Below are positions 2,312 through 44,985 of a stretch of DNA of 64,000 nucleotides, piece after piece. A model generated the notes under the pieces. It was not told the DNA's origin and ran no database searches. It saw nothing but the letters and a program-made list of their open reading frames with translations. Source of the stretch: a virus. A program made the position numbers and the translations under genes. The first letter of the stretch is position 1. Each line of letters begins with the position of its first letter. The stretch lies in the UHGV virus genome UHGV-0214148; one strand, 5' to 3'.

Positions 2312-3115
2312 TTACCACTTCCCGTTACCTAAACCCATAACACGCAGGTTAGTTTTCTTATTAGCGATGGCCAGGTACTCCTGCGCTAACGCACGAACTT
2401 CACCACGACGAGATTCTGTCGCGATAGTAGACGTAGTGTTAGGATTTCGCAGAATGTCCTCCAGCGCCTGGAGGGAGACGCGACGGTCCAGCAGAACGCG
2501 TGTGGATTCTTGAGCCACCTTACTACCGCGTTGAATCGCAGAGTATTTGTTACAAATCTGCAACCCGTCTTCGATAACCCAGTCAAACGTTACCAGGCGA
2601 TCCAGGCGACGTGTTTTCACACCACCTACATAACCTTCACGTACGATTGCACGCAGAGAGAAACATACATTCTGGTGTGGGTTTTCGAGCGCTTCTGCTA
2701 AGTACGGACCACGTTCACGGTTCGGCTTAATCCAGCCCCAGATTTCCATAACTGGTAACCCGTTACAGGTTTGGTCGGTTGGAATCACTTCAACTTCACG
2801 AATGTGCATACAGACGTTTTTCGTCTCAATCCATTCGTTGCGATCGATCCATTGCGCTTCGGTCATACCGGGTTCTGGTGCCGGGTGATCTTCTTCCCCG
2901 AACAGATTCCCTGCTTTCACTTTACGCATAAAGATGTTCGAGCGTTCGAATACGTGCTTAGACTCGTTATAGGCGTAAAAAATCCCTTCCGAGTTAAAGA
3001 TATTCAAAGCACCCAATAGTACGCGGTAATAACCATCCGCGTCTTTCTCCAGTGTGGCTGGAGCGTTAACACCGGCTAACGCTACGCAGTTGTAACGCAG
3101 TGTTAAATTGTCCAT
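2312..3115 (-). CDS. hypothetical protein
   Basis: 267-aa ORF, directly abutting downstream gene (operon-like). Confidence 0.6.
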   Translation of the reverse strand: MDNLTLRYNCVALAGVNAPATLEKDADGYYRVLLGALNIFNSEGIFYAYNESKHVFERSNIFMRKVKAGNLFGEEDHPAPEPGMTEAQWIDRNEWIETKNVCMHIREVEVIPTDQTCNGLPVMEIWGWIKPNRERGPYLAEALENPHQNVCFSLRAIVREGYVGGVKTRRLDRLVTFDWVIEDGLQICNKYSAIQRGSKVAQESTRVLLDRRVSLQALEDILRNPNTTSTIATESRRGEVRALAQEYLAIANKKTNLRVMGLGNGKW

Positions 3116-3146
3116 TGTTTTCCCCGAGTAAAAGTAAAAGGTAAGA

Positions 3147-3881
3147 TTACCTCATAAACAAATCTTCGAGCGGTTCGGCACGCACCGGGTCAACCTGTAG
3201 CGCAGAACGAATACCACGTTTAAGTTCCACGTCCGCAAGCTTCGCCAGTCTCGACGTTTTGTTAAGTGAACCACTGCGCAATGGAATAAACTGCACAGGG
3301 TTGTTAAGATCGCTATCTTTCTTCAGCGTGTAACGGAAGAACGTTCTCGGATCACCCACTTTACGCTGCGTGTGCGCTGCGTAAACGTCAGCGGTAATCT
3401 GATCGGCAAATACAGTAAAACCGTTCCATTTCTTGACTTTATCAGGTGCCAAGAGTTCAGCATCATCCGCTGCAGTAAACCAGAAAGGACGATTACCAAA
3501 GTCGTAAATATACGACGCAATGTTGTAAATAGGGTGAGACAACACCTGTAAATTGCGGTTGGGGAAAACCACTGTACCGGGATCAAAACGAAATTCGTAA
3601 TAAGGAACACCAAAGACGTCGATCTCTTCAAACGCCGTTGGGGTAATCTCCATAAGCGTTGTCACGCTGGACACCCCATATGTTTTACGGTCGGTAGAAA
3701 TCGCAAAGATCCCTACAATTGTTACCGTAGAAGAAATAACCGCCAACTCTTTCGCCACAAACCCAACGGGGATGTAAATGTAACACCCCCCTTTGGTAGT
3801 GGTGACCGTGCCGTTATTTACCAAGTCCGCATGAACCTTAGTAGGGTCACGACGGGCTGTTTCAATCGCACTCACGATCAC
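3147..3881 (-). CDS. hypothetical protein
   Basis: 244-aa ORF. Confidence 0.55.
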   Translation of the reverse strand: MIVSAIETARRDPTKVHADLVNNGTVTTTKGGCYIYIPVGFVAKELAVISSTVTIVGIFAISTDRKTYGVSSVTTLMEITPTAFEEIDVFGVPYYEFRFDPGTVVFPNRNLQVLSHPIYNIASYIYDFGNRPFWFTAADDAELLAPDKVKKWNGFTVFADQITADVYAAHTQRKVGDPRTFFRYTLKKDSDLNNPVQFIPLRSGSLNKTSRLAKLADVELKRGIRSALQVDPVRAEPLEDLFMR

Positions 3882-3893
3882 CTCCTAAGCGCG

Positions 3894-5354: not shown

Positions 5355-5644
5355 TGTTTAACCTCTTTATTCGTGCTGATGTTCGCCTGAAGCATCGCGT
5401 ACAAACGCGCGCCCACCAGATCTGCGATATCACGTTTCAGCAGTTTCTGATCACCGATACGGTCAGACATTCCTGAGTTACCGCGAATCAGACCATGCAC
5501 AATCTCCGTTGCTAATTCGACAGTATTACCTAAAGACACGTAGTTGGTACGTTGAATGGGACTGTATCCCTCCACGTTTTGCTGGGTAATATTTTTCCCA
5601 GTCGGAATACCGTGTCGCTGTTTGATTTTATCTAGAATAGACAT
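5351..5644 (-). CDS. hypothetical protein
   Basis: 97-aa ORF, translationally coupled to 3894..5354. Confidence 0.5.
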   Translation of the reverse strand: MSILDKIKQRHGIPTGKNITQQNVEGYSPIQRTNYVSLGNTVELATEIVHGLIRGNSGMSDRIGDQKLLKRDIADLVGARLYAMLQANISTNKEVKQ

Positions 5645-5665
5645 TCTCTTCTCCGGAGTTTACAA

Positions 5666-5684
5666 GGGTGGGAGCGACCCACCC
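5666..5684 (-). terminator. stem-loop (GGGTGGG / CCCACCC) downstream of the RNAP beta-like gene
   Basis: 7-bp GC stem; weak U-run, so may be a stability or attenuating element rather than a full terminator. Confidence 0.3.
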
Positions 5685-5691
5685 CTCGAGA

Positions 5692-8600
5692 TTATTTAAG
5701 TGTCGCGGGTAAATCAGGCACAGCTTCCCCATCGAGTATACGCCCGATGAGAATCCCGGCTTGTTCACCTACAGCATTCGCGGTACCGATACGTTGGATT
5801 GAACCTACGATACGCGCATCGACGGAATCACGACCGAACAACACGTCCAGGTCATCACCATCCTCTGTTTTGTTATCCCCGTACATGACTTCTTGTACGG
5901 TGGTTTTTAGCTGGTTAGCAATAACCATCTTATCCGCAGCGGCCATCTCAACGTCGTGTGTAATAAAGAATCGAACACAAAGTGAGTTAAAGGCCAAGGG
6001 TACACCTTCGACACGGTAGTCGCCGTTTACACTACCTGAAACCGGATCACCGCGTCCGACTGCCAGTGCGGCTTTACGACGAATTCTGTCGTATTTACGC
6101 ACCAGCTCAGCAAGACTTGGCGTCATGTCTTCGGTTTCACCGTGATACACCACTTCGATTTTATCCACGATACCACGTACCCCTGCACGAGGTGCGTACG
6201 AACTTAAACTTTGCAACGTTGCGGCTGCTTCCTGACTAAAGGCACTCATATCGCCCGTCAAGTCGTCAGTAAACGTGCATAGGATTGTATCGACGTCTAC
6301 GTGGTCGCCCTCATTCACGATTTCCAAAAGCATCTGGTTGCTGTTAATCGTCACTTCTTTCAGCTTTGTTACCTGCCCCACCATTTTCTTCGCGAACCGT
6401 TCAGAAATTGCGTTGGAGTCTTCGATAACTTCTTCAGCTTCTAATAAAGCAACGGTGGCCAGCACCCCGTTTTTCCAGGAAACCTGAGTAGGATCGTAAA
6501 TATCAGGTTCAAAGTGTTGCTCGTTGTACGTAATCACTGCCCCGGCCGGGAGCTTGTCACCGGCTTTCCAGCGTGTTACCAAGGTGTGCGGATAGAAGGT
6601 ACCTTCGTGGGGGCCGAACCAGCGCCCTAGAGGAAAGGCTTCTTTACTTCCATCTTCGTACGTAATTTCAATGTGGTCTTTCGACAGACCAGTTATCTTA
6701 CCTGCTTTATCAATAACGCGTGCATGTTTCACCGAAGTACGGTGAGCGACGAATTTCTCCTGTTCAGTACGATACGGGGTTGTGGTTGCCCCATTACAAC
6801 TGGTGGCAGAACCTAACTGAATCCCAACGAAGTTCTGACGTTTTGCATCGTCCATTAACGTATCGGGTACTAACCCGTCAATAAACGAAAGAGTATCGCT
6901 TGGTTTCGGGGTTTTCTCTTCACGCTTAAACGTGGTACCGTCAACGGTGTCAAAACGTGGGTTATTGGTGACGAAAGCAGTAATCCCTACGTCGCCGTTA
7001 TCTACGGTGTTACCCGAGACTATCCCGATATCACTGGGTTGGAACTCACGTGTGTGGTAGACCATCGTTTTACGATTACGACCACCTGTACCCCCCATCG
7101 TAATAACGTCTTTTTCTTTAATTGACTGGATAGGGTTAGCGCCTGGTGCCAAAAGTACCGACGGGTCGGAGTTAATCGCACCCCAAACCATATCTTGCGT
7201 CAGTTCGAACTTACGGTTACTGCCCGGTGCGTTATTGTAGTTACGCATCGCTCTGACCATCGCAGTATAGATGTGGTAGGCAATCCTCTGATTTCCTAAG
7301 AACATCATTTCGTCGCCGTTAATCTCTGGTAAAGAGTGGTCAGTTTGTAACAGTTCGTTAGAACGTTCCAGCAAGCCAATAAAGGTTTCCGGCTCACCCA
7401 TTTTCCTGAGGATACGTGCGTGCATGTCGTCAACAAACGCGGACCGCATCTGTTTCAGCTCGTTGATGTACCGTGGCGTTAGGCCATCTGCTTCACGTAA
7501 TAAGTTCAGGTAAATGTCTTCGCGGTCTGCTTCTGATTCGGTATAAGCAACCAGGTGTTTGAGATAGCGATCCAAACCATGCAGAATCATCCTCTGCTGA
7601 TCGTTATCGCAAGTAACTAAAAGTTTACAGTCTTGTAGTCGAATAATACTGTCGTAGGCATTCTTATCAACACGTTGCCCTGCAGGAACCAACTCGTATT
7701 GGATACCGAAATGTTTCAACATTCCCTGGAGTCCAAGATAGAACGAGAAGATAAAACCAAGCGACAAAGATTTACCCATCAAAGACAGCTCGGTCATTTC
7801 GCGAGGCACTTTCTGGTTATTAAAGCCCAGTACCTCTGCGATAGTTCCCACCGGTTCAACTTTGTTTCCGTTCACACCGTAAAGCATGGATTTGTCATCC
7901 ATTGCCAGGATTGTTTCACTACGCGGACGTTTCGCCACTGGTAAAAGTTTGGCAGCATCGGCGTCTCTGAGTTGCTCGTCGTTAAAGAAGTTAACGGCTT
8001 CTTTGTAGTCGAAGTTCCACATATAGCCATTCGCATTAAAGCTGGCAATACGACGTGCAATCTCCGTATACTGACGAGGCAGATGTTGCGTAGGATCGAA
8101 CACATTTGCTAAACGTGCATCGGTGACTTCGGTGTTTGTCGGGTCAACGGCGCGTGTGATAATCGCGTTGGTTAACCAACGACCGTAATCGTTCGCGACC
8201 TTATCACTACGACGGACAAAGTTTTTACCGTAAGCGGTAGTCAGTGCGACAGTATCCGGTGCAACCTTACGAATCGGTAAGTCCACACGTTGGCGACGCA
8301 TGGTGTATTCGACACCATTAGCGACCCAAGTACCGTCCTCGGTCAAGCCTGGGATAGAGAAGCGAACGGTTGTTGGCTCACCGCCGACTGGCTGAACACG
8401 TAAAGTGTGATGCTCGATAGTTCCTGTAACAGAAACTTCTTTTTCCACCGTGTGGTTGTGAACCGCCAGACCCAAACGTTGTGAACTGGCGACCGCCGCC
8501 AGTACGTCTTTGGTCATCATGGTCTGGTTGTATTGTTTCACCATCTGGTCGGTGACGTTCTCTGCCCACCCTTCATCGGTAACAAGCCGCTGAACTTTTT

Positions 8601-9858
8601 TCGGTTCGGCTTTAACGACAATATCTTTCTCGTGAACAGTCAGTGCTTCCCCGTAGGTTTCTTTCGGGTTATACGGGTTAGGTAGCTGAACGAAACGTTT
8701 AGACGATTCTGACAGGAACTGATATGCTTTAGAACTTAAGCGGCCCGCTTCAGCTAAGCGTTGTGCTTCCTGTTTAATAATCTCGTCATGTGGAATGACT
8801 TTCTCGACGACGATGGTCGTCGGTTTGACGTCTTCCTTCGGTTCTTCAATAACAACGTCTTCTTTTTCATCGAAGGTGTTATCGGACTCCACCACAGCGT
8901 CATTAACAACATCGTCATCGTCGACAACATCAACGGTTTCTTCTTCGACGTCTTTAAGGAAAACACGCTCGTCGCCTTCAGGCGTTAGGAATTCAGCTTC
9001 GTACGCGTTAGACGGTGCTTGTGTCATTACACGCACCAGCGTACGGTAGAACATCCTGGCCATTTGGTCATCACTTAAACGACCGCCGGACGACTTACGC
9101 ATTTTCTCTACAACACCCATGTTCATGGACGTAAAGCCCGTGTTGTGGGTGAAGATAAAGTTCATTCGTGACAGCTGAGTTAAATCCATTCCCGAGAATA
9201 AGGAATCGGATTGTTTTCCATAAGCCCAAGCAAACAACTCCAATAACCACAGCAAGTTAAAGTCCTGGAACTTCTCAATCTTGCTCTTAACGCGGTCGTT
9301 ATAGGTTGTTTGAAACTTCTGGAACGAAGGTAGAGTCGAACCCAGCTCAATAACGAAATAGTTCTGACGCATGTATTCTTGCGTGTCGTATTTGAACTGG
9401 TTAATCATCAACAGTTGGATGTTACGCAGTCTATCGTACCAGGCTAACTGGGTATCAGGATAGTAGTAGTGCGACAACATCGGTGTGTAGTTCTCGACCA
9501 GGAGAACTTTTAAGTCTTTGCGAACCAGATCGTCTGAGGTAAGACGACGCATTGGTCGGTTTGCACGGTGGTAAGCAAAGATAGCACGTTCTTGACCCTG
9601 AACAGGTTTGTTGCGCGGATGACCGCTAATACCGTCTTCCGGTAATTTAAAGTGGTGACGAACCTGTGCAGGTTTTTCTAACGGTTGAATAATCTCGAGT
9701 GTTGCAGGTGGCGCTAATACCACCTGGTCGAGATCAATGACATGGAGTACAGAACCACGTGGTATCTGTAGCTTCTCGAGCGGGATAATCCTCGGATTAC
9801 CAAACTCGTCAGTTTTACGCACCGAGAAGCGTTGGTTAAACTGTTTAATGAGCAGCAT
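5692..9858 (-). CDS. multisubunit RNA polymerase beta-subunit-like protein (N-terminal/central portion)
   Basis: 1388-aa ORF. [19 protein letters not shown] resembles bacterial RpoB [34 protein letters not shown] resembles FLEHDDANRALMGANM (bacterial sequences quoted from memory). Contains an acidic insertion ([12 protein letters not shown]). Adjacent to the beta-prime-like gene. Confidence 0.6.
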   Translation of the reverse strand: [1388 protein letters not shown]

Positions 9859-9867
9859 TGCTTAGCC

Positions 9868-11487
9868 TTATGGGTTCTTTAATAACGCTTGCGTTGCACG
9901 TTTAATCACGTTGTTGATAGGATTGATTTTAAAGTTCCCATCAGAATCGAACCAGTAGTTTTTCGAGTGTATCCAATTTCGGTTTTCCTCGAGCGCTTCC
10001 TGGGACATAGGCGCGTTAAACGACCCGGTATCGCCGTCGTAGTCACCTCCTAAGCCACCTAGACGTGAGGGGTGTGGTGCCATCGACTCAACGAAGGTAG
10101 GAACCGACCGGTCAGGGTAGCTGATAGCCCCTCGGGGTTTTTCAGTTTCCCAGTCATCTTCCAGTTCTTTTAAGTATAAAGATGACGTGGTGGTCTCCAA
10201 TCTTATGGTCGATGAATACGTCGAGCCTCGGCCTGTAACGGGATAACGTGTAACGAAACCGAAATAATCGTTCCAAAGTTCGTAGCCCGACAAATAAAGC
10301 AATTCGACGAGTGTCATACCGTGGACGAATTTTCGGTCAAACGTTTTAGGAAGTTCTTCAATATCGTAGAACACCTTAAAATGTTTGGTGTCTTGGTAAA
10401 CCAACGCAATGTAGTGGGTGTCATCCAACATAATCGGCTGATGGCGAAGCTCGCGAGCTTCCATTCGGTTGATTAAGGATTCAATCCCGTCGTCGGTGGT
10501 AAAGGTGTCGTATACACGACCACCTACTTCCAAGAATTCACGTTTAAGGGTTTTGGTGTTTACGCCGTAAAGGTTGCCATCACCAGCACGGATGTTACCG
10601 AGGTAACGTTCACGTATTTGGTACTGCGCAACAGGGAGTAATGCTTTTAAACCCTGGTATAAACCAATTTTGGTGTCGGTAGGACGAATAGCGTCTTCAC
10701 GACCCATGCACTTAGACCCCGTCGAGAACGAGGACAGTACGTTACGTGTCCCGTTCATTAATTTACGAGACGTAACCTTACGACGTTGGAAACCCCCTTT
10801 ACCGTCTTGGATGTTAAAGAAATACATCCAGATATCGTTGAAGGTTTGTTGCAGCTTCCAGCGCACGGGGTTAGTTAGTTCAACACGGGTTGCTCGGTCA
10901 GGGATCGCCCTGGCGAGTGATACCAACCGACGATACATCCCGCCGATTTCTTCTTCCTGTTCTCTACCATCTTGTCGAATTACTAAATCGCGTAAACCCG
11001 CGGGTAACACGAGAACGTATCGACTAAGACTAACGGGACGGAATTTCAAAAAGAAATCCACGGTTTCGTCACGTTGTAGGGACTCGTTACGCTTAGGTTT
11101 TAAATCGTTATAGTGACTGAGGAAGAAGTTAAAACCGGTATCTGCGCCTGGGTCTCCCGGCAAGGCCGGTTCGAAATCTTTTTCTTTTTCGCTCCAGGTT
11201 GCGTAGCGTTTTCCAGAACAAATTTCTTCGTAGAGTTGTTTGAGTTGGAATAACGCCAAACACACCGTCGGCGAAATGATATCGAGTTTAATATCGATAT
11301 AAGAGAAAGTAGAGTCTCGCGCTTCACTCCCCGTGAGTCCAAATATCTCTGTAGAGTAAAGACCTTCGGGGTGAAAGTTTTTTGTTAACCCCTGGAAAGT
11401 ATCCGTGGTCGTGACGGGTCGTAATCGCGACACAAGAGACTTGTTTACATTGAGCAGATAAAAGTCAACCCAATTAAGTTTATTCAC
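9868..11487 (-). CDS. multisubunit RNA polymerase beta-prime-subunit-like protein (N-terminal portion with catalytic DxDGD)
   Basis: 539-aa ORF, GTG start with AGGAG SD. GGDYDGDTGSFNAPMSQEA resembles NADFDGDQMAVHVPLTLEA; KGGFQRRKVTSRKLMNGTRNV resembles RpoC [21 protein letters not shown] (from memory). Confidence 0.65.
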   Translation of the reverse strand: MNKLNWVDFYLLNVNKSLVSRLRPVTTTDTFQGLTKNFHPEGLYSTEIFGLTGSEARDSTFSYIDIKLDIISPTVCLALFQLKQLYEEICSGKRYATWSEKEKDFEPALPGDPGADTGFNFFLSHYNDLKPKRNESLQRDETVDFFLKFRPVSLSRYVLVLPAGLRDLVIRQDGREQEEEIGGMYRRLVSLARAIPDRATRVELTNPVRWKLQQTFNDIWMYFFNIQDGKGGFQRRKVTSRKLMNGTRNVLSSFSTGSKCMGREDAIRPTDTKIGLYQGLKALLPVAQYQIRERYLGNIRAGDGNLYGVNTKTLKREFLEVGGRVYDTFTTDDGIESLINRMEARELRHQPIMLDDTHYIALVYQDTKHFKVFYDIEELPKTFDRKFVHGMTLVELLYLSGYELWNDYFGFVTRYPVTGRGSTYSSTIRLETTTSSLYLKELEDDWETEKPRGAISYPDRSVPTFVESMAPHPSRLGGLGGDYDGDTGSFNAPMSQEALEENRNWIHSKNYWFDSDGNFKINPINNVIKRATQALLKNP

Positions 11488-11516
11488 GCTAAATCTCCTG
11501 ATACGGATTAAACGTT

Positions 11517-14500
11517 ATGGCTAAAAAAGGTAAAGATGATTTCGATGAAATCGATCTTGATAACATGGACGACTGGGACGATTTTGATGAGCCCCCTCGT
11601 CAACAAGACCAATCGCGTAACCCGGTCATGGACACATTTCGTGCTGCCCGTAAGTCGGCGTTGTCGACTATCTGGCCCGAAAACAAACGTGATCAGGTTA
11701 TTTTAAAAGGGATGCCTAAACCTGCGGCAGAAGCCTACGAAGGCTATCAAAACGTTAAAGCTGCAGGTCAAGACATTCTGGCCCATACGAAAGACGAGAT
11801 TGAAAAGACGTCTCGCGTCGTTAAGATGCAAGCGAGACAGTTAGGCCCAACACTGAAACGGTATTTACCGGAATCCGTAACACGGAAAATCGACAAGTGG
11901 GCACGTAACGATCAAATCGACTATGGGAATTACGATCCTAAACAAGCGATGATGGATCGTGAGCTGGACAGCGTGTTCTCAGGCGCACCGCAGACAGCTG
12001 ACCAGCAACGTGAGATGCAAGAGGGGATGGTTGAAGACCGCTTGCGCGACACGATTAAGGACATGAAGTCCGACGCGCTGTTCCAGACCGTAATCGGTAT
12101 TGCAAAAGACGTCAACTTAACGACTAGCTTAAGTCGTGGCGTATTGTTAAATGTTCAGCGTAAGCAGTTAGAGCTGCAATATCGGACATTGTTTGCTTTG
12201 CAGGATATTGCGAAACTCAAACAAGACGAGTTTGCACGCAACACCCCGGCATTAGAAGCCATCGTTAAGAACACAGCACTACCGGACTACGCGAAGGAAG
12301 AGTTTTCTGAAATTCGTTGGGCTAATGTAAAACGTAAAGCTGCGGAGTGGATGAACCCCTTACACTACGCAGACAATTTCGTCGATCAGATTCGTGAAAA
12401 TGCGAAGAAGAAAATCTCGAACATCTTTAGTGACGGTCGTGGGATTCTAGAACAAGTTCTAGGGATGGCTCAGGAAGATGACTTTGGCATGTCGGACAGC
12501 TCATCGTTGACTCCTGACCGCCGTAACACAAACTCGCGTAATAAAGCGGCAGGCTTTGCAGGTGGTTGGTTAGCAAAACGCCTCTTACAACCCCAGATCG
12601 AGCGTCTCCAAAACTGGACCCGTGGCGAGTTAGAGAAAAACCCAGAAGTAATGAAGCGGTTGGAAAAGCTGAATTACATCGTTAGTAATAAATCGTCACT
12701 TTCTAACTCAGCTATTGCGGGGGAGTCGAGCGGCTGGTTAGCGGACTTTTTCCGCCTGTTGAACGATGTAGGATTGGTTAACCCGCTACGTCGCGAAACC
12801 TTAGCATTAGACGATCGTTCTGCGGAATCTCTTTCTGCCGCGGCGAAATTCGATCGTAAAGCTTACCTTAGTATCACCGAAGTTATTCCGACGTTACTGT
12901 CCGAGATTAACAAATCTATTCGTCGTGGATATGGCGAACACCACGATCAGGTTTATGACCTGACCACGCGCGGTATGGTGGATCGCAAAGTTATTGGTAA
13001 TCGTGTACGTAAGGCCGTTGCTAATGACGATCAGCGCAAACGTTTACAGACGTACATCAACGACACTGTCGACTTTATCGATAAAGATAAAACGCTCGAT
13101 AGGAAAACACGTCAGGCGTTAGCGGACTACATCGAGTCTCGTGCCTCAGAAGGGAAAGCGTTCGATGTAGGGTCTTTATTGAAAGACCCGATGCACATGT
13201 ATCGGTACATGAACGCAAACGCTGTGGAAGCGATTCAGGGTGTTTTAGAAGCCCGTTCTGCGGAACTGGTTGGCGGACACCATGAACTGAGTAATGCGAT
13301 TTCAAACAAAATCGCCGCTATTCAGTCAACGATTCGTGCACGTCAAGACACGGTTGATGCTGCGTCTGTGATTTACGGCGAGAACGCACTTCGCGATTCC
13401 GGTATTTTTAAATACGATGCGAAGAACGACATTTTCGAGGTCGATAAGGACATTAACGATCCCTATACGCTATTTAACGACCTGTCGATGGGTAAGACCC
13501 GTTCTGGCCGTTCGTTAACCCGTGAGCAAGAGATTCAACGTAAGCTGCAAAATGGTTCTGCGTTGGGTGATTACTTGCGTCGGATGGGTGCAGGTGCAGA
13601 GCCGAGCTTTGAAGACAAAGAACTGTCCAACGTACGTGGTGGTGGAAAAGGTGGTCGCGGTCGTGGTTTAAGCGCCCGTCAACTCGCTGCTGTACTTTAT
13701 GGAGAGAAATCCACCAACTTTGTTGAGCTCTTAAGCAGCCGTCCAGATACGAACGCTGGGCTGGAACAACAGTTCGATCGATTGATTGATGCGGTACGTA
13801 AACAGTCCGAATCTAGCACCGTGCAAGATATCCTCAAACACGTTAAGAACATGGATGAGGAAGGTATTCTTCTGGCCAGTTTAGGCGGTAGTCGCGATGA
13901 CGGCGACGAATCTGAAAGTTCGAGTGAATCGGGCCGTAAACGTCGTCGTAAGCGCAAACGTATTGTACTAGGCGAGACAGGTTTGTTACGTCGCTGGGCT
14001 GGGGTGCTTTGGGATACCGGTTCTGGTGTAGGACGGTTTGGTAAGAATCTGTTCCTGCGCGGGAAAGATCGCCTACAAGCATTAGGTGGTTTTATTCGTG
14101 GGAAATTCTCAGGCGGTTCCTCCGAAGGTCCCGGCGTATTTAGCCGACTGAAAGGGTTAGTAACAGGTACATTATCGACGGGTTGGAATTCTGCCGTAGC
14201 TTTCGGTAAAGGTGTTTTAGGCGTTCGCGACATCTACGATGAACGTGGTAACGTCGTATTACAAGGAAGTCGTTTAGAGGCTGGGGAATATTACCAGGCT
14301 GACCCGAAAACTGAGAAGCTGATTCAACTTAAAACTCTCGACGATATTAAACTGGGACGTGACATCGTCGACGAAGCGGGTAATTTAATCTTAGCGGCTG
14401 CTGATTTGGCTGCCGCAGGTAAACTGCGCTTCTACAAAGGCGGTAAAGTTCAAGCGCTTTTCCAGTACATTTCTGGGAAAGCAGGAACGGCGGTAAACAA

Positions 14501-17500
14501 AGCTGTGACCTTACCGAAGAAACTTCTGGGTTTCATTTCGCCTAAAGCGGCTTCGTTGTTCGAGAAAGCACGCGAGTGGTTAAATGAGGTTCCAGAGGGC
14601 GCAGAGAAAACCCGTTTACAAAGCATGATTTCCCGCGTAACGGGGATGCCAGCTCGTCTGTGGAACAATGCAAAACGTGGGTTTGAGAAGCTCAAAGAGT
14701 TGGCTTCTGATAATCCGTTGACACGTTGGTGGCAGAACCGTAAGGAAGGGGGTTCTGGTGGTGGGTTTAGTGTGTTCTCGTGGTCGAATGGCCGCAAAAC
14801 TAACCACATCTTAATCCGTATCTACAAACTCCTTAACCGGAGATTGCCAGGTGAACCTGAAGATGACACCTGGACAGAACAGATGGAGCGGAATACAGGG
14901 GCCAGTTCAGTTAAAGGATTATTCCAACGTGCTAAGGACATACGCGATGGGTTCCGTGAACATTTTCAAGGGTTCCGGGATTGGCGTGGTCGGATGCGTG
15001 ACAGAATGTCCCGTTACCGCAGTGCGGTAGGTGGTCGTCTTTCTCGTTGGGGTGGTGCAGCACGTGATTGGTTTGACCGTTTCCGTGGCCGTGCAAGCGA
15101 TATGGTCGATACCTTCCGTGATCCGCGTTACGACATTGGAACACGTTATCGAATGGAGAGTCGTTTAGCAGGACGCGATGACGACGTTGCTGAGTTTTAT
15201 CGTCAACACATCTACGCAAGAGGCAAGGTGTCTAAAACACGTATCATCGATGCGGCAAAAGAAGACTTGGATACCGTAACGGATAGCGCTGGACGTGTGA
15301 TTAATAAAGGGAAACAGAAAGCCCGTAGCGTTGGGTCAGCTTTACTGGAACGCCTGAACCGAATGGTTAATCTTCAGGAAATGTCGTGGTTTAATACCAT
15401 GCGCGATTCTGCGGAAAAAGCAGGTGCTTCGGATGGTTTGTTAAGAACCATGTTCAGTAAGTTCGGTCAACGTAACAAGCCACCTGCCAGTGATGAAAAA
15501 CGCGATTACTTCCAGTTCTTCCGACGCCGTCGTCGCTCTAAGGAAGAGGAAAAGGCTAAGAAAGAGGCTGAGAAGAAAGGCGGTAAACGTGGGGTAATGG
15601 ATTTCCTTAAAGGACTGCCGTTGGTAGGGCCGATTGTGAGTATTTTAGGCACAGTGGGTTCAATCTTAGGTAAAGTCGCAAAATGGGGAATCTTCAAGCC
15701 TGTTGGGTTTGCAGGTAAAGCGTTGTGGAACGTTGGTAAATTTGCCGTAACCCGTTTGGCTGTCCCTGCGGTGAGTGCTGTCGCGACGGCAGCATCTGCA
15801 GTGGTAACTGCGGTTGGCTGGCCGATTATTGGTTTGGTCGCTGCAGGCGCTGCGCTGTCTTGGTTTGCGTATAAAACGGCAACCCGTGTGAATGCTCAGT
15901 ATCTGGATAACATGCGATTGGCACAGTACGGATTTAGAGATCACGATGAGTGGTCTTCCGACGATGGCGCAAAAGCACGTTATTTAGAAGACAACTTGAA
16001 ACCGTACATCTCTTATACAGAGAATGGTCAAGCACAGTTGCGTGGTTTGTCCGGTGACGACGTGAAGAAACTGGCCGAAGGGTTTGGTACTAACGTAGAA
16101 GACAAAGGCGAAATGCTGGCGTTTACCGCGTTTATGTTACAACGTTTTGTGCCGATCTATTTACGTTGGATTACGGCACTGAAATCCATGGATAATGATA
16201 TCGCGTTAGCAGATGTCGGTAATCCTGCGAAAGTGTCGAAAGCAGACATGCTTACCATCTTTAACAAAATGAAGATGACAAAAGATGCACCTGCTTTTAA
16301 ATCACTGACAGACCCCCGTAAAGTTAACCAAGGTTGGTTCTCTAAAGCGTGGGATTTCGTGACCTTCACACCGGCAGAATTTTTGTCAGGTGAAGAAGTT
16401 GTCGAAGCACAAGATCGTGTTTTCCGGTCTATCAACATGCGTCGCGATGATAAGCGTAAGGAAACAACTGGGGCCGGTGGTGTGCCTGAAGGACATAAAG
16501 TTGCTTCTGTGGCAGAATCTTCGCAGGTACTCGCGAAGAACGATACCGAGCGTAACGAAACTGTTGCTAAAGCTGAGGGTTGGGAAGACGGTACTGAACA
16601 GGTTCAAATTCAAGTTGACTGGAGAGCATTACCTGAGAAGAAAGATTTGGACGCGATGGAATCCGTCCGTTGGAAATCTTACGGTGTGAAATCTGTTAAT
16701 GAGACAACACGTACCCTCTTTAGGTTGCTTGAGAAAGAAGTGTTGAAAGACACGGATATCAAAAATTGCATTTATAAGGGCGATTGGAAGAAAGCAATTT
16801 CTGCGATTGCGCCTGATGCAATTGGCGGTCCAAAAGAGGAACGTTACAAGAACTGGTTCTATAATCGATTCTTACCTGTATTCATGACCTACGTTTATGG
16901 TGTAAAACGTTACGTGCCTCATGCCGATCCGTTGGATTTGAAACTCACAGGGGGGTTCCTCTATGAGCTGGCACTGATGATGCGTGGTGCTTACAACATG
17001 AAAGGGGGTATCCGACAGTCTGTGTGGGAAATCGCATTTAACCCGTTAGGAGGCGATGCGAATACCGATGCAGGTTCAGTGAGGGAAGAATTAGCAACGC
17101 TGAAAGAGTTGTCTAAAGAACCCGATCTGGCTGTAAGGAATATGCTCAAAGAAACACCGAGCACGCCTAAGCGTATGACATGGAAATCACCAGCGACAAA
17201 CTCCAGTGTCCATCAGACGAATGAAGATAGCAAAGAGCGTTATAAGGGAATTAACAGCTACGGCGAAGCTTCAAACGATGGCTACTTACCGAAAGGTGGT
17301 CAGTCCTACGGTACGCCAGGTGACTTATCACAAGTTGTCGGCGATATGGGTATAGGGAACTATGCGAAGTATTCCACTGGACAATCGGGTATCACCCTCG
17401 GTGAGTTACAAGACGGTGATTACAAGTCGTTAGTGACTAAATACCCAAGGGAAATGCTCGGTAAACCGATGCAGTCAAATACTGAAGCCATCAAGTCATT

Positions 17501-18683
17501 GATTATTGACGCGGCAAACATGGTGGGTATTCCGCCATCTGTTGCGATTGCGATGGCACAAGCAGAATCTGGCTTGCAGTATGGCAACTATCCTGGCGCA
17601 TCCTCTGGCAGACCGAGAAGTAATAAGATGACTGCCGCTGGCCTGTTCCAATTCACCAACGGTACTTGGAACGGGGTTATGAAGCAATACGCCCGAAGAT
17701 ACGGTATCCCACAAACCGATCAGTTCGACCCGTGGGCTAACGCAATCTTAGGTGTTAACTTCATTAGAGACAACATCAAGACCGCACAAAAGGATTTGGG
17801 TGGGATTGCCCCGCCACCGGCAGTAGCGTACCTGTACCACTTCTTAGGTCCAGGTGGCGGTGCTGAGTTCCTTAAAGCCTGGAAAACCAATCCTAACGGC
17901 TCGCCCGACAAAGTGAAGTATATTACACCTGCCGTTCTTAACGGTAACGAAGGTGTTTTCTACATCATGAACGGGAAGAAACGTGTTAGGATGCGTACGG
18001 TCGGCGAGGTTGTCGAGGAGCTGAACCGCCGTATGGGTGCGGTTGGAACTAACGAGATTGCAGCAAATCCTGCGTCTGCGAAAAACATGACAAAAGGGTT
18101 ATCTCCAGTTCCATCGTCTCCTGCAATTGCTGCGGGCGCTGCTAACGATCCGTCTATTGCTGGTCCGGCAGATAACCTACCAGCCGCGAACGAGGCGAAT
18201 CGTGACACCGCTTTAGCAGACAAAGGCGCGATGGGTGCTGAAGATATTAAAGCTGCAACGGGTGGTGGTCCGGCTGTGCCGAGTCCTGGCGGCGACGTTA
18301 CGCCGAGTGATGCGTCTGTCGTTGTAGAAACGGTGGGTAAAAATGCGCGTGCCGACGGCCTGGCCGAAGAGGAAGTTGCCAAAGTAAAAGAAGGTGCTAG
18401 ACAGCAAATGGAGAAATCCGCACGTCCTGCACCAACGGTAACGTCTGATGCACAGACTGCGCCAACAGTGAACAGCGGTGATCCGATTAGCGTACAACAG
18501 CTGGCGGTTGCAAAAGAGTCTGCGGGATATCTGAGGGAGATTGTTACAATTCTTCGTCAGCGGCCACAGGCTATGCAGCCATCCCCAGCGACCTCGGCAG
18601 CTTCTGCTCCGGGATCAGCATCACGTAACATCGCGGTTGAACAACCTGCCCGCCAACTCGATGTTGGTCGTAAACGGGCGTAA
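11517..18683 (+). CDS. giant virion-type protein with C-terminal lytic transglycosylase (SLT) domain
   Basis: 2388-aa ORF. SLT motifs AMAQAESGLQYG and AAGLFQFTNGTWNG near the C-terminus; acidic N-terminus; Arg/Lys-rich stretch; Gly/Ala-rich hydrophobic segment (LPLVGPIVSILGTVGSILG...); Ala/Pro-rich C-terminal tail. Confidence 0.8.
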   Translation: MAKKGKDDFDEIDLDNMDDWDDFDEPPRQQDQSRNPVMDTFRAARKSALSTIWPENKRDQVILKGMPKPAAEAYEGYQNVKAAGQDILAHTKDEIEKTSRVVKMQARQLGPTLKRYLPESVTRKIDKWARNDQIDYGNYDPKQAMMDRELDSVFSGAPQTADQQREMQEGMVEDRLRDTIKDMKSDALFQTVIGIAKDVNLTTSLSRGVLLNVQRKQLELQYRTLFALQDIAKLKQDEFARNTPALEAIVKNTALPDYAKEEFSEIRWANVKRKAAEWMNPLHYADNFVDQIRENAKKKISNIFSDGRGILEQVLGMAQEDDFGMSDSSSLTPDRRNTNSRNKAAGFAGGWLAKRLLQPQIERLQNWTRGELEKNPEVMKRLEKLNYIVSNKSSLSNSAIAGESSGWLADFFRLLNDVGLVNPLRRETLALDDRSAESLSAAAKFDRKAYLSITEVIPTLLSEINKSIRRGYGEHHDQVYDLTTRGMVDRKVIGNRVRKAVANDDQRKRLQTYINDTVDFIDKDKTLDRKTRQALADYIESRASEGKAFDVGSLLKDPMHMYRYMNANAVEAIQGVLEARSAELVGGHHELSNAISNKIAAIQSTIRARQDTVDAASVIYGENALRDSGIFKYDAKNDIFEVDKDINDPYTLFNDLSMGKTRSGRSLTREQEIQRKLQNGSALGDYLRRMGAGAEPSFEDKELSNVRGGGKGGRGRGLSARQLAAVLYGEKSTNFVELLSSRPDTNAGLEQQFDRLIDAVRKQSESSTVQDILKHVKNMDEEGILLASLGGSRDDGDESESSSESGRKRRRKRKRIVLGETGLLRRWAGVLWDTGSGVGRFGKNLFLRGKDRLQALGGFIRGKFSGGSSEGPGVFSRLKGLVTGTLSTGWNSAVAFGKGVLGVRDIYDERGNVVLQGSRLEAGEYYQADPKTEKLIQLKTLDDIKLGRDIVDEAGNLILAAADLAAAGKLRFYKGGKVQALFQYISGKAGTAVNKAVTLPKKLLGFISPKAASLFEKAREWLNEVPEGAEKTRLQSMISRVTGMPARLWNNAKRGFEKLKELASDNPLTRWWQNRKEGGSGGGFSVFSWSNGRKTNHILIRIYKLLNRRLPGEPEDDTWTEQMERNTGASSVKGLFQRAKDIRDGFREHFQGFRDWRGRMRDRMSRYRSAVGGRLSRWGGAARDWFDRFRGRASDMVDTFRDPRYDIGTRYRMESRLAGRDDDVAEFYRQHIYARGKVSKTRIIDAAKEDLDTVTDSAGRVINKGKQKARSVGSALLERLNRMVNLQEMSWFNTMRDSAEKAGASDGLLRTMFSKFGQRNKPPASDEKRDYFQFFRRRRRSKEEEKAKKEAEKKGGKRGVMDFLKGLPLVGPIVSILGTVGSILGKVAKWGIFKPVGFAGKALWNVGKFAVTRLAVPAVSAVATAASAVVTAVGWPIIGLVAAGAALSWFAYKTATRVNAQYLDNMRLAQYGFRDHDEWSSDDGAKARYLEDNLKPYISYTENGQAQLRGLSGDDVKKLAEGFGTNVEDKGEMLAFTAFMLQRFVPIYLRWITALKSMDNDIALADVGNPAKVSKADMLTIFNKMKMTKDAPAFKSLTDPRKVNQGWFSKAWDFVTFTPAEFLSGEEVVEAQDRVFRSINMRRDDKRKETTGAGGVPEGHKVASVAESSQVLAKNDTERNETVAKAEGWEDGTEQVQIQVDWRALPEKKDLDAMESVRWKSYGVKSVNETTRTLFRLLEKEVLKDTDIKNCIYKGDWKKAISAIAPDAIGGPKEERYKNWFYNRFLPVFMTYVYGVKRYVPHADPLDLKLTGGFLYELALMMRGAYNMKGGIRQSVWEIAFNPLGGDANTDAGSVREELATLKELSKEPDLAVRNMLKETPSTPKRMTWKSPATNSSVHQTNEDSKERYKGINSYGEASNDGYLPKGGQSYGTPGDLSQVVGDMGIGNYAKYSTGQSGITLGELQDGDYKSLVTKYPREMLGKPMQSNTEAIKSLIIDAANMVGIPPSVAIAMAQAESGLQYGNYPGASSGRPRSNKMTAAGLFQFTNGTWNGVMKQYARRYGIPQTDQFDPWANAILGVNFIRDNIKTAQKDLGGIAPPPAVAYLYHFLGPGGGAEFLKAWKTNPNGSPDKVKYITPAVLNGNEGVFYIMNGKKRVRMRTVGEVVEELNRRMGAVGTNEIAANPASAKNMTKGLSPVPSSPAIAAGAANDPSIAGPADNLPAANEANRDTALADKGAMGAEDIKAATGGGPAVPSPGGDVTPSDASVVVETVGKNARADGLAEEEVAKVKEGARQQMEKSARPAPTVTSDAQTAPTVNSGDPISVQQLAVAKESAGYLREIVTILRQRPQAMQPSPATSAASAPGSASRNIAVEQPARQLDVGRKRA

Positions 18684-18691
18684 CAGTAATC

Positions 18692-18720
18692 GGGGGTAGG
18701 TAACTACCCCCTACTTTTTT
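18692..18720 (+). terminator. intrinsic terminator after giant protein gene
   Basis: GGGGGTAG / CTACCCCC stem followed by TTTTTT. Confidence 0.6.
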
Positions 18721-18731
18721 AGAGGTATAAA

Positions 18732-20903
18732 GTGGACGCTAGAACAGCTAACGACTCAAGCTGGGTCAAAAGCCTCTTTAACGGCGTGTTGGATGGCCGA
18801 GATGAACGTTTCCTGGCCTTGCGACGCTACTCCAACGGTATGTTATCGTTCGAGGACACCACGTTAGGTGGCAGTAAAGCGATTAACACACCACCCCAAT
18901 TTACATGGTTTGCAGATCCGCCCTCGACTGGCGCATTTGCACAACCTGACAACCCGAGGGCCGAAACCAAAACATTCTCCAATAATCGAGAAACAGGTTC
19001 GTATAAACTCGGTACTTATTTCTACGAAAGCATTAATCAGAATTCGTTTTATGTTCACTGTCGGTTCGGTAAACCGAAATATCTGGGTATGGCCGCATTC
19101 TTTGCGAACATGTACGACTCCAACCTAGCGTACTTGGCCCGTACTGGTGACTATCCAGGTATGATGAGAACGATGGTTTCGTATTTAGGTGCAGCCGCAA
19201 TATGGGCCACTGTAGGTACCGTTGCTTTTGCGGTTATTCTCATCACGCCACGAATTCTAAAAGCGGTGTTGAACAAACAAACATCGCGTTACTATTACGT
19301 CAAGCCAACGATGCATTTGTATTTGCGTGCTGTGCAAAACATTCTAAATACGCAACTTATTTATCGTCGTTTGGTTCCCACAGGCGTGCTCGGTAATTTC
19401 AAACTACAAGAAAATACCGACGATGGCACAAATTCATACAGTAATGATAAACAAGACTGGTATGCTTCGTTGCCTACTATCTGGAAAGATAACGGGGAGT
19501 TTGACGTTTATCGAATGATAAACCGCTATCAAACGTTAGCGAATTATCAGACCAAAGCCATAGAGCAAATGCGTGTTGAAAGCGGTGGAGATGAAGAAGC
19601 ATTTGCAAGAAAACTACGTGCGTTTTATAACGAAGGGATGTACTCCAAACGTGTTATCAATGATGCGGGTAGTTTCGAAGTTTCGTTGCATGACTTAGAA
19701 ATGGTCGCTCAAAAAGACAACGCTTATAAAGCGCCTTTTGAAGATATTAACGATCAAGAGTCTATGTTGGTTGAAGGGATCACTGGCACACTAACCGCTG
19801 GCGGTACCGCAGATGAAATTGATGCGAACACAAAGAAACTTCGAGAATCAATGGCAGCAAACATGGCTGCTGCGGAAAAAGCTGAAAGCGAAATCGGCGG
19901 TGAGGAAGTCCCTGATATAGCCAAGATACAAGAATGGGCAGATGCGGGTTCTAAAGAAAATGTAGGTACCTTCTTTAAAGATTTCGTCGAAATGGGTAAA
20001 AACTATATCGACGGTATTAAGGAAAATGCGCTTTCTGAAATCCGTAATGGTTCGCAATGGGTATCGTGGCGTATCGATGCTAAAGACACGGTTTCTCGTT
20101 CGTTCTCTAACTCCACTAAAGAGCCAGAGATTTCTGGTACCGTTAACTCGTTAACCGCGAAAGCACGTTCGTTAGAAGTCAACTTATCCGGTGGTCAAAC
20201 GGGTTTCAGCGCTGTAGATGCTTTAGTTTCCGGGATTAAGTCCGCGATGCGTGGCGTTGCCGACACCTTACATTTGACAGGGATCATGTCGTTGTACAAT
20301 TCTTCGGTAATTGACTTTCCAGAAGTGTGGGACAGTTCGGATGCGTCGGGTGATGACATTACGTTAACGATACCGTTACGCTGTTGGTCTGGCAACGATT
20401 TGGATATCTTCCAAGACTTGCTCGTTCCACTGTCATTCTGGATCGCTGCGGTTTGTCCGCTGGCTACAGGTAAACAATCTTTTACTCACCCGTTCTATTT
20501 AGAGTGTTACTCACAAGGACGCTTTTCTTTCCGTAATGCGATGGTGACGTCAATGTCATTGCAATTCGGTGTGGGTGGTTTAGGTTGGCGGCCAGGTGAT
20601 TCCGTTCCGCTGTCTTGCGATATCTCTGTTACTATTCGTGATTTGACTCGCGTTATGTACATGCCCATTGTTACCGACACAGGTGTGTGGGATGACGATA
20701 ATAAATTCAGTGAATTTATGGCGTGTTTAGGTGGTGCTACGTTGTACGAGCGTACTAACGGTATTGCGCGTGCCAAGATTAATGCGAGCATCTGGGCACA
20801 AAACTGGGCATCCGCGTGGTCACAGGGTAGTTTTATTAACTCTGCACTGGATGTTATCCCAGCACGCCAGATCGCGAACATCTTCTTGCCGCAAGCACGT
20901 TAA
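18732..20903 (+). CDS. hypothetical protein (possibly virion-associated)
   Basis: 723-aa ORF directly downstream of the giant gene on the same strand; one hydrophobic segment (AIWATVGTVAFAVILI). Confidence 0.6.
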   Translation: MDARTANDSSWVKSLFNGVLDGRDERFLALRRYSNGMLSFEDTTLGGSKAINTPPQFTWFADPPSTGAFAQPDNPRAETKTFSNNRETGSYKLGTYFYESINQNSFYVHCRFGKPKYLGMAAFFANMYDSNLAYLARTGDYPGMMRTMVSYLGAAAIWATVGTVAFAVILITPRILKAVLNKQTSRYYYVKPTMHLYLRAVQNILNTQLIYRRLVPTGVLGNFKLQENTDDGTNSYSNDKQDWYASLPTIWKDNGEFDVYRMINRYQTLANYQTKAIEQMRVESGGDEEAFARKLRAFYNEGMYSKRVINDAGSFEVSLHDLEMVAQKDNAYKAPFEDINDQESMLVEGITGTLTAGGTADEIDANTKKLRESMAANMAAAEKAESEIGGEEVPDIAKIQEWADAGSKENVGTFFKDFVEMGKNYIDGIKENALSEIRNGSQWVSWRIDAKDTVSRSFSNSTKEPEISGTVNSLTAKARSLEVNLSGGQTGFSAVDALVSGIKSAMRGVADTLHLTGIMSLYNSSVIDFPEVWDSSDASGDDITLTIPLRCWSGNDLDIFQDLLVPLSFWIAAVCPLATGKQSFTHPFYLECYSQGRFSFRNAMVTSMSLQFGVGGLGWRPGDSVPLSCDISVTIRDLTRVMYMPIVTDTGVWDDDNKFSEFMACLGGATLYERTNGIARAKINASIWAQNWASAWSQGSFINSALDVIPARQIANIFLPQAR

Positions 20904-20919
20904 TGTTTGAGAGGAAATA

Positions 20920-21483: not shown

Positions 21484-21507
21484 AAAAGAAAAAAAAATAA
21501 GAAAGTC

Positions 21508-21533
21508 TACCTACCTCCTTTCGGAGGTAGGTA
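21508..21533. terminator. bidirectional terminator between convergent genes
   Basis: TACCTACCTCC / GGAGGTAGGTA stem with long A-run before and T-run after. Confidence 0.65.
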
Positions 21534-21540
21534 CTTTTAT

Positions 21541-31256: not shown

Positions 31257-31286
31257 ATCACCTTGTTACAAGGGGTTACTGGTTTA

Positions 31287-32371: not shown

Positions 32372-33047
32372 ATAAAGCGGCATCTCGTGGGTCGACACCG
32401 ACCCACTCTGCCATAAACCGGATATGTTCCTTAAACGGGTTAACGCCGTCTTGTTTGATTTGTTCAACCAACACTCCGGTCAGTTCTGGTGTGAGCATGG
32501 CAGGGTGTGTGATGGTAAAGCTCGGAATCGGTTTTTTCAAGTGTGTGGCGTTAAGCTTAATCCACTCGAACCAATCGTACATTATCCAGCAATCCCACGC
32601 CAATGACAATCTCCCCGGTGTGAGATCTTCTAACGACCAAGACACCAATTCAACTTGTACGTTATTGTAGTACATCCGAAACAGATTCAAAAAGGCTTGA
32701 AGTTCTTCGCCTGTTAAATCCGTATAAGGCCACGTATTAATGGTAAGTGTGGGTTTTTCAATTGGCGAATGCATTTCGATTTCAAGCAACATACACTCGA
32801 ATTCGTTTTTCATTGTTGCCAATAATTCAGTAGGCTGCGCATTAATCAACGCGCGCTTATCCCGCTTCCGCCACTCTTCATCCCATTTTTCAAATCCGAG
32901 TACGCCAGCCCAAGCTTCTGTATAGCGACGACGATAAACGTCGTAGTCTAGCAATGCTAAGCTTTCAGGCTTAACGGCTTTTACCCAACCTAAACGCGTA
33001 TCAAATAACGTATCAATATCGATTAAGAAACGCCGAGATAATCTCAT
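32325..33047 (-). CDS. hypothetical protein
   Basis: 240-aa ORF; 3' end overlaps the convergent gene 31907..32371 by 47 bp. Confidence 0.5.
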   Translation of the reverse strand: MRLSRRFLIDIDTLFDTRLGWVKAVKPESLALLDYDVYRRRYTEAWAGVLGFEKWDEEWRKRDKRALINAQPTELLATMKNEFECMLLEIEMHSPIEKPTLTINTWPYTDLTGEELQAFLNLFRMYYNNVQVELVSWSLEDLTPGRLSLAWDCWIMYDWFEWIKLNATHLKKPIPSFTITHPAMLTPELTGVLVEQIKQDGVNPFKEHIRFMAEWVGVDPRDAALFSLARPVQDVQTPPS

Positions 33048-33712
33048 GACGGATGGCCTATGTTGTTACCGATATGCATCGCTTTTAGGTACGCCGACCA
33101 CGTACGTGTTGCTTTAGAACTCGTTCGCTCCGCTCCAGGCAAATCAATACGCCCTTTACCGGTTTGGCGCAGTGATTGATAGAAAGCACGTTGTAGTGCG
33201 TCGTTACCACCACGCGCCCACAAGAACTCTTTCAGTGTCCAGTCGTGACCATCGGAATACATGATGTATGCTTCTGGGAAGGACACCCCGGATGCTTTGG
33301 AAGGTCCGACGACTTGACCGGAGAGTTTATCGCGAACTTTGTCGTTTTTCGCAACCGCCATTTTCTTTTCTTGCATCTGTGTCTGACGACGGACAGGCAA
33401 GCGTAAGACTAAGTGAGGGTAACGAGTACGGTGATAGACACCCGTTTTTGGTTCTGTTAACCAGAGTCGTTGCTCCAGGTTTACCCCGAGAATTTTGCAC
33501 ACCTCGATATTGCGCAGGTGGTCAATTTCGACTTTACTTCCCACCGGGTTGTAAATAGGCAAACCGTTACGAAGTCGGTTAAACTGTTCGTCGGTCATTC
33601 GCGCGAAGGCTTTCTTCGCGGCTTCGGCATTAATGCCAGAAGGGTCTACCAACTTTAAGATTTGTAAGGCGTAGGCTTCCGCCTTTTTACGCCGCGCTGG
33701 TTCGAGTTTCAT
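33044..33712 (-). CDS. hypothetical protein
   Basis: 222-aa ORF, coupled. Confidence 0.55.
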   Translation of the reverse strand: MKLEPARRKKAEAYALQILKLVDPSGINAEAAKKAFARMTDEQFNRLRNGLPIYNPVGSKVEIDHLRNIEVCKILGVNLEQRLWLTEPKTGVYHRTRYPHLVLRLPVRRQTQMQEKKMAVAKNDKVRDKLSGQVVGPSKASGVSFPEAYIMYSDGHDWTLKEFLWARGGNDALQRAFYQSLRQTGKGRIDLPGAERTSSKATRTWSAYLKAMHIGNNIGHPS

Positions 33713-44960: not shown

Positions 44961-44985
44961 TGCTCACCTCGGAGTATTTTTAATT

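Follow-up and report, generated by a model that had tools for sequence, protein, structure and literature searches.

Probable virion RNA polymerase genes divergent from a giant transglycosylase-domain protein gene in an SPN3US-like jumbo phage genome

The virion RNA polymerase (vRNAP) of Salmonella phage SPN3US has been defined by proteomics and genetics: gp240 is the N-terminal piece of beta-prime and gp241 the N-terminal piece of beta, an amber mutation in gene 241 leads to the loss of gp240, gp218, gp42, and gp244 from the particles, and tailless heads still contain the complex (PMC5105663). The vRNAP of phiKZ is composed of gp178, gp149, gp180, and gp80 (PMC8287921; PMC10612078), and Goslar virions carry five vRNAP subunits, gp78, gp196, gp205, gp207, and gp210 (2026 Goslar study). 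In this work we analyzed a 64,000-nt stretch of virus genome UHGV-0214148 (the window), in which two RNA polymerase (RNAP) genes on the minus strand diverge from the gene of a giant 2388-amino acid (aa) protein. An original prediction, made from the sequence alone, had proposed the vRNAP arrangement of phiKZ-like phages, and this proposal is backed by orthology to gp240 and gp241 and by conserved synteny. It is highly likely that the minus-strand pair encodes two of the five vRNAP polypeptides of an SPN3US-like (Seoul-like, PhuZ-less) member of the Chimalliviridae, located beside a tail protein of the phiKZ gp181/SPN3US gp239 type.

The vRNAP beta-prime N-terminal subunit (539 aa, GTG start) is encoded at 9868..11487 and the large vRNAP beta piece (1388 aa) at 5692..9858, both on the minus strand, while the giant virion protein occupies 11517..18683 on the plus strand. 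All three open reading frames (ORFs) have the predicted coordinates and lengths, and the predicted distance of 29 bp between the divergent starts is exact (11488..11516). The PHROG matches are near full length, at E = 7e-234 (phrog_2986, beta-prime), E = 0 (phrog_3148, beta), and E = 0 (phrog_3201, giant protein), and the three identifications are therefore far beyond chance. The spacer consists mostly of the beta-prime ribosome-binding region plus a short leader of the giant gene: CTCCT at 11496-11500 reads AGGAG on the minus strand, 7 nt ahead of the beta-prime GTG, and this GTG start is kept in eight relatives. SPN3US, Stratton, Asesino, and Huxley share the 29-bp gap; Kwan, Phobos, and Derbicus have 23-32 bp, and across the family the gap measures 21-32 bp in close relatives and 42-152 bp in the other loci. 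A short divergent gap is typical of the family. Another tight divergent gap (25 bp, 44961-44985) separates a minus-strand gene (44457-44960) from a virion structural gene on the plus strand (44986-46359), which indicates that tight divergent starts are a habit of this genome and not peculiar to the polymerase block.

The entire 64-kb window is collinear with SPN3US (Seoulvirus), where gp239/gp240-gp241 ... gp244-gp245 show the same gene order and strands. The SPN3US proteins are 61% (giant protein, gp239), 86% (gp240), 76% (gp241), 87% (gp244), and 81% (gp245) identical to those of the window. The two phages differ in that the nucleotide identity is ~73% over ~60% of the block, many small flanking genes are 26-50% identical or missing, and the SPN3US genome is 240 kb in size versus 220-227 kb here. 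The Erwinia phages Stratton/phiEaH2 and Asesino (Erskinevirus) are the top matches for the 1388-aa protein (82%) and for the block DNA (74-75%), with the same arrangement, but they differ in host genus and show genus-level divergence. In phiKZ (seen in the phiKZ-species phage KTN4) gp181 is divergent from gp180 and gp178 in the same layout, followed by a small ORF, a ~500-aa ORF, a gp176-like ORF, and the protease; KTN4 differs by a protein identity of 33-35% and a 75-bp gap, and the phiKZ beta N-terminal domain is scarcely alignable by tblastn. The divergent arrangement was present in 14 of the 14 chimallivirus loci checked (SPN3US, KTN4, RAY, Goslar, RP31, pTD1, PhiEaH1, an EL-like phage, and six close relatives). 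The conserved layout consists of a 2200-2500-aa protein divergent from beta-prime N and beta N, with a small ORF, a ~490-aa ORF, a gp244-like ORF, and the prohead protease downstream; this downstream order was judged as far as each fetched locus reaches, and in the six closer relatives the divergent part was covered. The layout is absent at the locus of AR9. The Bacillus jumbo phages AR9/PBS1 also have split beta and beta-prime subunits, with 22% identity for the beta-prime N piece, but the AR9 beta-prime N gene is not beside a giant SLT gene.

The 539-aa protein had been predicted to carry the beta-prime catalytic region, and both the catalytic motif and the Arg-rich block are present. The Mg-binding motif DYDGD, the counterpart of NADFDGD, is found at aa 482-486 (10030..10044, minus strand), and the Arg-rich block GKGGFQRRKVTSRKLMNGTRNVLS at aa 229-252 (10732..10803, minus strand). 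Family alignments of the 539-aa protein (A1) and the 1388-aa protein (A2) were built from annotated phage loci and searched as profiles against all Protein Data Bank (PDB) chains. The A1 profile matches beta-prime of AR9's non-virion RNAP (nvRNAP) at E = 4e-20, chloroplast beta-prime at 2e-11, and residues 212-356 of E. coli beta-prime at ~7e-10. The DxDGD loop lies inside the profile alignment to the solved beta-prime chains, where DYDGD aligns with DFDGD of the chloroplast and AR9 proteins; among the 10 homologues in A1, D482 is invariant and D484 and G485 are nearly so. The Arg-rich block falls within the top-scoring stretch of the AR9 match (GKkgllqrkvasrrvangTrnVis versus GKKGFLRKNIMGSRINFSARNVI), and the matches to bacterial beta-prime span the same profile positions. 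It follows from the profile matches that the 539-aa protein covers beta-prime up to ~50 residues beyond the catalytic loop; the solved AR9 nvRNAP structure backs this fold assignment. The protein is 85.7% identical to SPN3US gp240 over its full length and, as judged by sequence, is the orthologue of gp240 and of phiKZ gp180. Single-sequence phmmer searches of the two RNAP ORFs against PDB returned noise only (hits to laccases and, at E = 0.4, to a DFDGD stretch of beta-prime), and a Pfam scan gave no match for the two ORFs, the beta C-terminal piece, or the gp244 homologue.

In Goslar (9476-11662 of the locus) and in an EL-like phage (9452-11401), a break in the beta-prime N gene falls exactly at the DFDGD codons. 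In both the break adjoins an HNH or ORF179-like endonuclease, and in Goslar a group I intron is also annotated. The AR9 gene (7986-12938 of the locus) is joined from three pieces and has group I introns with homing endonucleases. Unlike these three, the gene in the window is uninterrupted and Rfam finds no intron in it; across the window neither the Rfam nor the tRNA scan gave a match, which indicates that the block genes are free of introns.

RpoB-like blocks had been predicted in the adjacent 1388-aa protein, and we located them as IPGLTEDGTWVANGVEY (aa 502-518), GGTGGRNRK...SGNTVDNGDVGI (922-959), DDAKRQNFVGIQ (1003-1014), and ADKMVIANQLKT (1308-1319). In alignment A2 the last block (5902..5937, minus strand) is the counterpart of the beta active-site block GDK..GNKG, and D1309, K1310, Q1316, and K1318 are invariant in the beta-family alignment. 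The A2 profile matches Thermus beta 535-656 at E = 3e-11; further collinear stretches, weak and below threshold, correspond to Thermus beta 118-134, 396-464 (the fork-loop region), and 822-880 (GDK..GNKG). Thus, for both proteins, the similarity to RpoB or RpoC chains that the original prediction called for is significant. Based on the A2 matches, the 1388-aa protein consists of ~490 phage-specific residues and then beta to ~880 of 1119 (Thermus numbering), the beta homology running from ~500 to 1388. The phage-specific part, residues 1 to ~490, contains a conserved domain at the N-terminus, then an acidic linker (~295-345) and another region; an N-terminal extension has been described for SPN3US gp241 (PMC5105663). 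Of two homologue searches with this extension, the first was swamped by the acidic linker and the second gave fragments alone, and an AlphaFold model of it from five sequences had a predicted local distance difference test (pLDDT) score of 45.8. The identity to gp241 (76%) extends over the full length and the 82% match is to the Stratton orthologue; by sequence the protein is assigned as the orthologue of gp241 and phiKZ gp178. By tblastn, full-length homologues of both RNAP proteins were found in about 320 jumbo-phage records, ranging from SPN3US-like and Erwinia phages down to phiKZ, EL, Goslar, AR9/PBS1, and Staphylococcus S6. Goslar gp205 and gp207, two of the five virion subunits, are homologues of the two RNAP genes in the window. 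Several Salmonella SPFM phage records contain short odd ORFs overlapping block genes, with high scores at 8-19% query coverage, which suggests frameshifted or fragmented gene calls in the deposited genomes.

Each of the two proteins had been predicted to cover part of a subunit, with the remainders encoded elsewhere. Both are indeed partial, and two of the missing parts, the probable beta C-terminal piece and a candidate beta-prime part, are found within the window itself; the beta-prime middle piece lies outside it. The probable beta C-terminal piece (222 aa; 33044..33712, minus strand) is 83% identical to SPN3US gp218, is the orthologue of gp218 and phiKZ gp149, and has homologues in 305 phage records. 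Its family profile (A4) covers E. coli beta 1160-1310, with the GGQRFGEME region, in an alignment that is weak (E = 0.4 against the whole PDB); the position is collinear, directly after the beta portion covered by the 1388-aa protein. The gene is 21 kb away from the block, and in SPN3US gp218 is at the same relative distance. The remainder of beta-prime is in two further pieces. The candidate for one of them, and for the fifth vRNAP subunit, is the homologue of SPN3US gp244 and phiKZ gp176 at 3147..3881 on the minus strand, 1.8 kb downstream of the beta gene (87% identity to gp244); translation probably begins at the GTG at 3875, for a length of 242 aa. The beta-prime C-terminal identity proposed for this protein is tentative: profile searches against PDB returned weak matches and none to an RNAP, and its AlphaFold model appears reliable just for the beta-rich first ~115 residues. 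The other piece, the gp42 homologue (beta-prime middle), must lie outside the window, since gp42 is absent from the syntenic SPN3US stretch; the bridge helix, trigger loop, and C-terminal clamp parts should be found in it. A preprint on persistent phages names YP_009153538 as the SPN3US chimallin. In RefSeq, YP_009153538.1 (26035-26757 of the fetched SPN3US stretch) is the 240-aa gp244 beside the protease, which is not chimallin-sized; the label may be a typo, and we did not use the chimallin statement of that preprint.

The giant protein had been predicted to bear a transglycosylase, and an SLT lytic-transglycosylase domain is found at aa 1995-2093 (17499..17795, plus strand; PF01464, E = 2.3e-8), with a score of 34 bits versus the Pfam gathering cut-off of 21.3. 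Putative SLT motifs are AQAES (aa 2014-2018), with the catalytic E-S, and GLFQ (aa 2042-2045). A Kyte-Doolittle scan detected two hydrophobic segments resembling membrane spans at aa 1366-1385 and 1414-1451 (15612..15869, plus strand). In addition to its 61% identity to SPN3US gp239, the protein matches KTN4_221, the 2237-aa gp181 homologue of the phiKZ species, in both halves by BLASTP (E = 2e-26 and 4e-18). phiKZ gp181 is a structural peptidoglycan hydrolase whose activity has been measured, and gp239 is named the tape measure protein by the SPN3US workers (PMC5105663). Directly downstream is the gene of a 723-aa homologue of Goslar gp203, a tail-tube initiator protein (18732..20903, plus strand; BLASTP E = 5e-29). 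In view of the gp181/gp239 homology, the SLT domain, the two membrane-span-like segments, and the adjacent tail-tube initiator homologue, the giant protein is most likely a tape-measure-like protein of the tail lumen with a C-terminal lytic transglycosylase. Its name in PHROG and GenBank is "tail fiber protein", which would make it a tail fibre or receptor-binding protein functionally unrelated to the polymerase genes. We regard this as improbable: a muralytic domain and membrane-span-like segments, homology to the KTN4 counterpart of phiKZ gp181, for which hydrolase activity has been measured in phiKZ, the tape measure assignment of gp239, and the tail-tube initiator neighbor all argue against it, and the Goslar structure paper does not place gp204 in the modelled fibres or baseplate and nowhere mentions it. 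The label is probably wrong, and a tape-measure or cell-puncturing role fits better.

It could also be argued that the two RNAP genes belong to the nvRNAP, which serves middle and late transcription inside the phage nucleus, and not to the packaged enzyme. The vRNAP and nvRNAP sets are split in a similar manner, and among solved structures the beta-prime profile matches the AR9 nvRNAP best; that top match, however, only mirrors the set of structures solved so far. Mass spectrometry and genetics identify both orthologues, gp240 and gp241, as virion proteins, the SPN3US nvRNAP subunits are other genes elsewhere in the genome, e.g., gp35 and gp77, and a ~400-490-aa N-terminal extension that is missing in bacterial beta is a described feature of the vRNAP subunit gp241 (PMC5105663). 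The genes in the window also sit among structural genes (protease and tail). An nvRNAP identity is therefore very unlikely, and we assign the pair to the vRNAP. A comparable system is that of Thermus phage P23-45, whose virion RNAP has a genetic link to the tape measure protein and is injected for transcription of the first genes, but there the polymerase forms a domain of that protein itself and comes from another two-barrel RNAP lineage (10.1101/2022.12.01.518664). In the window, unlike in P23-45, polymerase and tail protein have separate, divergent genes, and the head would carry the complex, as in SPN3US (PMC5105663).

Next, we examined where this phage occurs. Its closest phage records are ~73-75% identical in nucleotide sequence over 50-60% of the block, and no cultured isolate of it was present in the phage collection searched. 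The exact 539-aa sequence is indexed in 193 assembly blocks with contigs of 222-225 kb, including gut-type metagenomes, and the NCBI records of this protein and near-identical cluster members, which are on 220-227 kb contigs, name it a "hypothetical protein" and assign it to many Salmonella enterica serovars, E. coli, Shigella flexneri, and Enterobacter ludwigii. A genome above 200 kb had been expected, and the exact 539-aa and 1388-aa proteins are indeed on contigs of 220-227 kb. The bacterial host names in the NCBI records (Salmonella, E. coli) and the lack of Pfam RNAP matches to either ORF might suggest decaying rpoB/rpoC fragments without polymerase function on a bacterial contig, an explanation with next to no probability given intact ORFs conserved in more than 320 phage records with invariant catalytic residues, synteny of the whole window with SPN3US, phage-sized contigs, and a 2025 preprint describing such contigs as persistent jumbo-phage infections of sequenced isolates (10.1101/2024.12.31.630880). 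The distribution fits the "Seoul-like" persistent jumbo phages found in bacterial isolate assemblies (bioRxiv 10.1101/2024.12.31.630880). Membership in the Chimalliviridae is suggested by the synteny with SPN3US and Asesino, and Asesino is nucleus-forming; Asesino, Stratton, and SPN3US, the closest cultured relatives, belong to a chimallivirus clade with a nucleus but without PhuZ (PMC11724907). Neither a chimallin gene nor a second, non-virion RNAP set is present within the 64 kb of the window. Since the nearest clade lacks PhuZ, its absence is expected and does not weaken the vRNAP interpretation; phiKZ, unlike this clade, encodes PhuZ. The block does not represent new biology: it is part of the conserved core of nucleus-forming jumbo phages, its function is known from phiKZ, SPN3US, AR9, and Goslar, and it is a textbook trait of the phage family in a member that is outside the cultured phage genomes yet widespread in public assemblies. 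The value for annotation is that proteins deposited hundreds of times as "hypothetical protein" (Salmonella, E. coli, Shigella, Enterobacter) can now be named, and that the block marks the contig as a ~223-kb SPN3US-like phage borne by bacterial isolates. Of greater interest in the window is the phenomenon of bacteria persistently infected by a virulent jumbo phage.

By analogy with SPN3US genetics, the vRNAP would assemble in the cytoplasm late in infection from the two proteins, the beta C-terminal piece, the beta-prime middle piece, and probably the gp244 homologue. The assembled enzyme would be loaded into the prohead and ejected along with the DNA, and would then transcribe the early genes without host RNAP or sigma. 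The 2388-aa protein, most likely in the tail tube, would cut peptidoglycan during injection via its C-terminal lytic transglycosylase. Both transcription units would start inside or against each other's 5' ends, and each would end at a hairpin, 5666-5684 for the minus-strand unit and 18692-18722 for the plus-strand unit. The former is a GC hairpin, GGGTGGG-TCGCT-CCCACCC (5666..5684), 8 nt past the beta stop codon; it lacks a clean T-run, was not among the terminator-scan results, and is possibly a terminator or an RNA-stabilizing stem. The latter, found by the terminator scan after the giant gene, is an intrinsic-terminator-like hairpin, GGGGGTAG-GTAA-CTACCCCC followed by TACTTTTTT (18692..18722). 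GC-rich hairpins followed by a T-run are present in many intergenic gaps across the window.

A host-type promoter architecture, which would weigh against a phiKZ-like phage, was also looked for. Sigma-70-like sites are depleted in 2000-21600 (9 versus 22.3 +/- 5.4 in shuffles), which is consistent with a phage that works without the host polymerase. The prediction that at least one promoter of the divergent genes lies inside coding sequence is soundly reasoned, though not surprising: with the 29-bp gap occupied by the beta-prime ribosome-binding region, each promoter must overlap the 5' end of the other gene. The late-promoter motif of phiKZ is TATG (PMC4666361). A search of the 250 nt upstream of each start, on the appropriate strand, found no TATG apart from one that overlaps the ATG of the giant gene; that copy cannot serve the giant gene, as its transcripts would begin at the G. 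In a codon alignment of eight relatives, the synonymous-codon identity over the first 20 codons is 0.60 versus 0.476 +/- 0.06 for beta-prime N and 0.585 versus 0.453 +/- 0.066 for the giant gene, a rise of about +2 sd per gene, with other windows in each gene equally high. The 5' ends of genes are often constrained for translation. The raised identity is compatible with embedded promoters but does not demonstrate them. We tentatively suggest, as a possibility of less than even likelihood, that the ~150 bp at the divergent starts (~11430-11575) form a compact bidirectional middle/late promoter for a phage polymerase, within the first ~20 codons of both genes and, separately, that the gp244 homologue is a sandwich-barrel hybrid motif (SBHM)-fold remnant of the beta-prime C-terminus that completes the enzyme. 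If the former is true, the start region would be a dual-coding regulatory element, of a promoter class so far undefined for Seoul-like phages.

When other intergenic regions were inspected, we observed a recurring motif, TAGATAGATATTATC, followed after 2-6 nt by (A)GGTGAG or GGGCAC, upstream of small genes. The motif scan located copies on the minus strand at 31864-31877, 37862-37875, 40980-40993, 50470-50483, 59107-59120, and 63490-63503, and a weaker copy is found upstream of 173-562. At up to 3 mismatches there are 11 matches versus 4.7 +/- 2.2 in shuffles, and copies are present at orthologous intergenic sites of SPN3US (24955, 34045, and 41603 of a further fetched SPN3US stretch). Judged from sequence and position, the motif is a candidate early promoter, possibly read by the polymerase of the block, and could help to define the promoters recognized by this enzyme. 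One copy with 3 mismatches at 11544-11557, 57-70 nt upstream of the beta-prime start, was rejected as a chance match (~4.7 are expected, and it is not conserved in relatives).

The conserved block ends with the prohead maturation protease (Peptidase_S80; 2312..3115, minus strand; phrog_3014, E = 1.4e-104; PF20034). Between the beta gene and the gp244 homologue are two positionally conserved minus-strand ORFs (phrog_3841), of 97 aa (5351-5644) and 486 aa (3894-5354), which occupy the same place in most chimallivirus loci reaching that far; the counterpart of the larger one is retained in the SPN3US gene-241 mutant and is not lost with the vRNAP (PMC5105663). The genome is 94% coding except for three stretches without a convincing ORF, 37798-38449 (652 bp), 63113-63478 (366 bp), and 31020-31286 (267 bp); Rfam gave no match in the three, and they could hold small RNAs or unrecognized small genes. 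Past the opposite end of this block, a 187-aa protein encoded at 20920-21483 (plus strand) contains DUF7941 (PF25613, E = 3e-24), and the DUF7941 proteins of Goslar have been reported as a cloud of long filaments on the virion.

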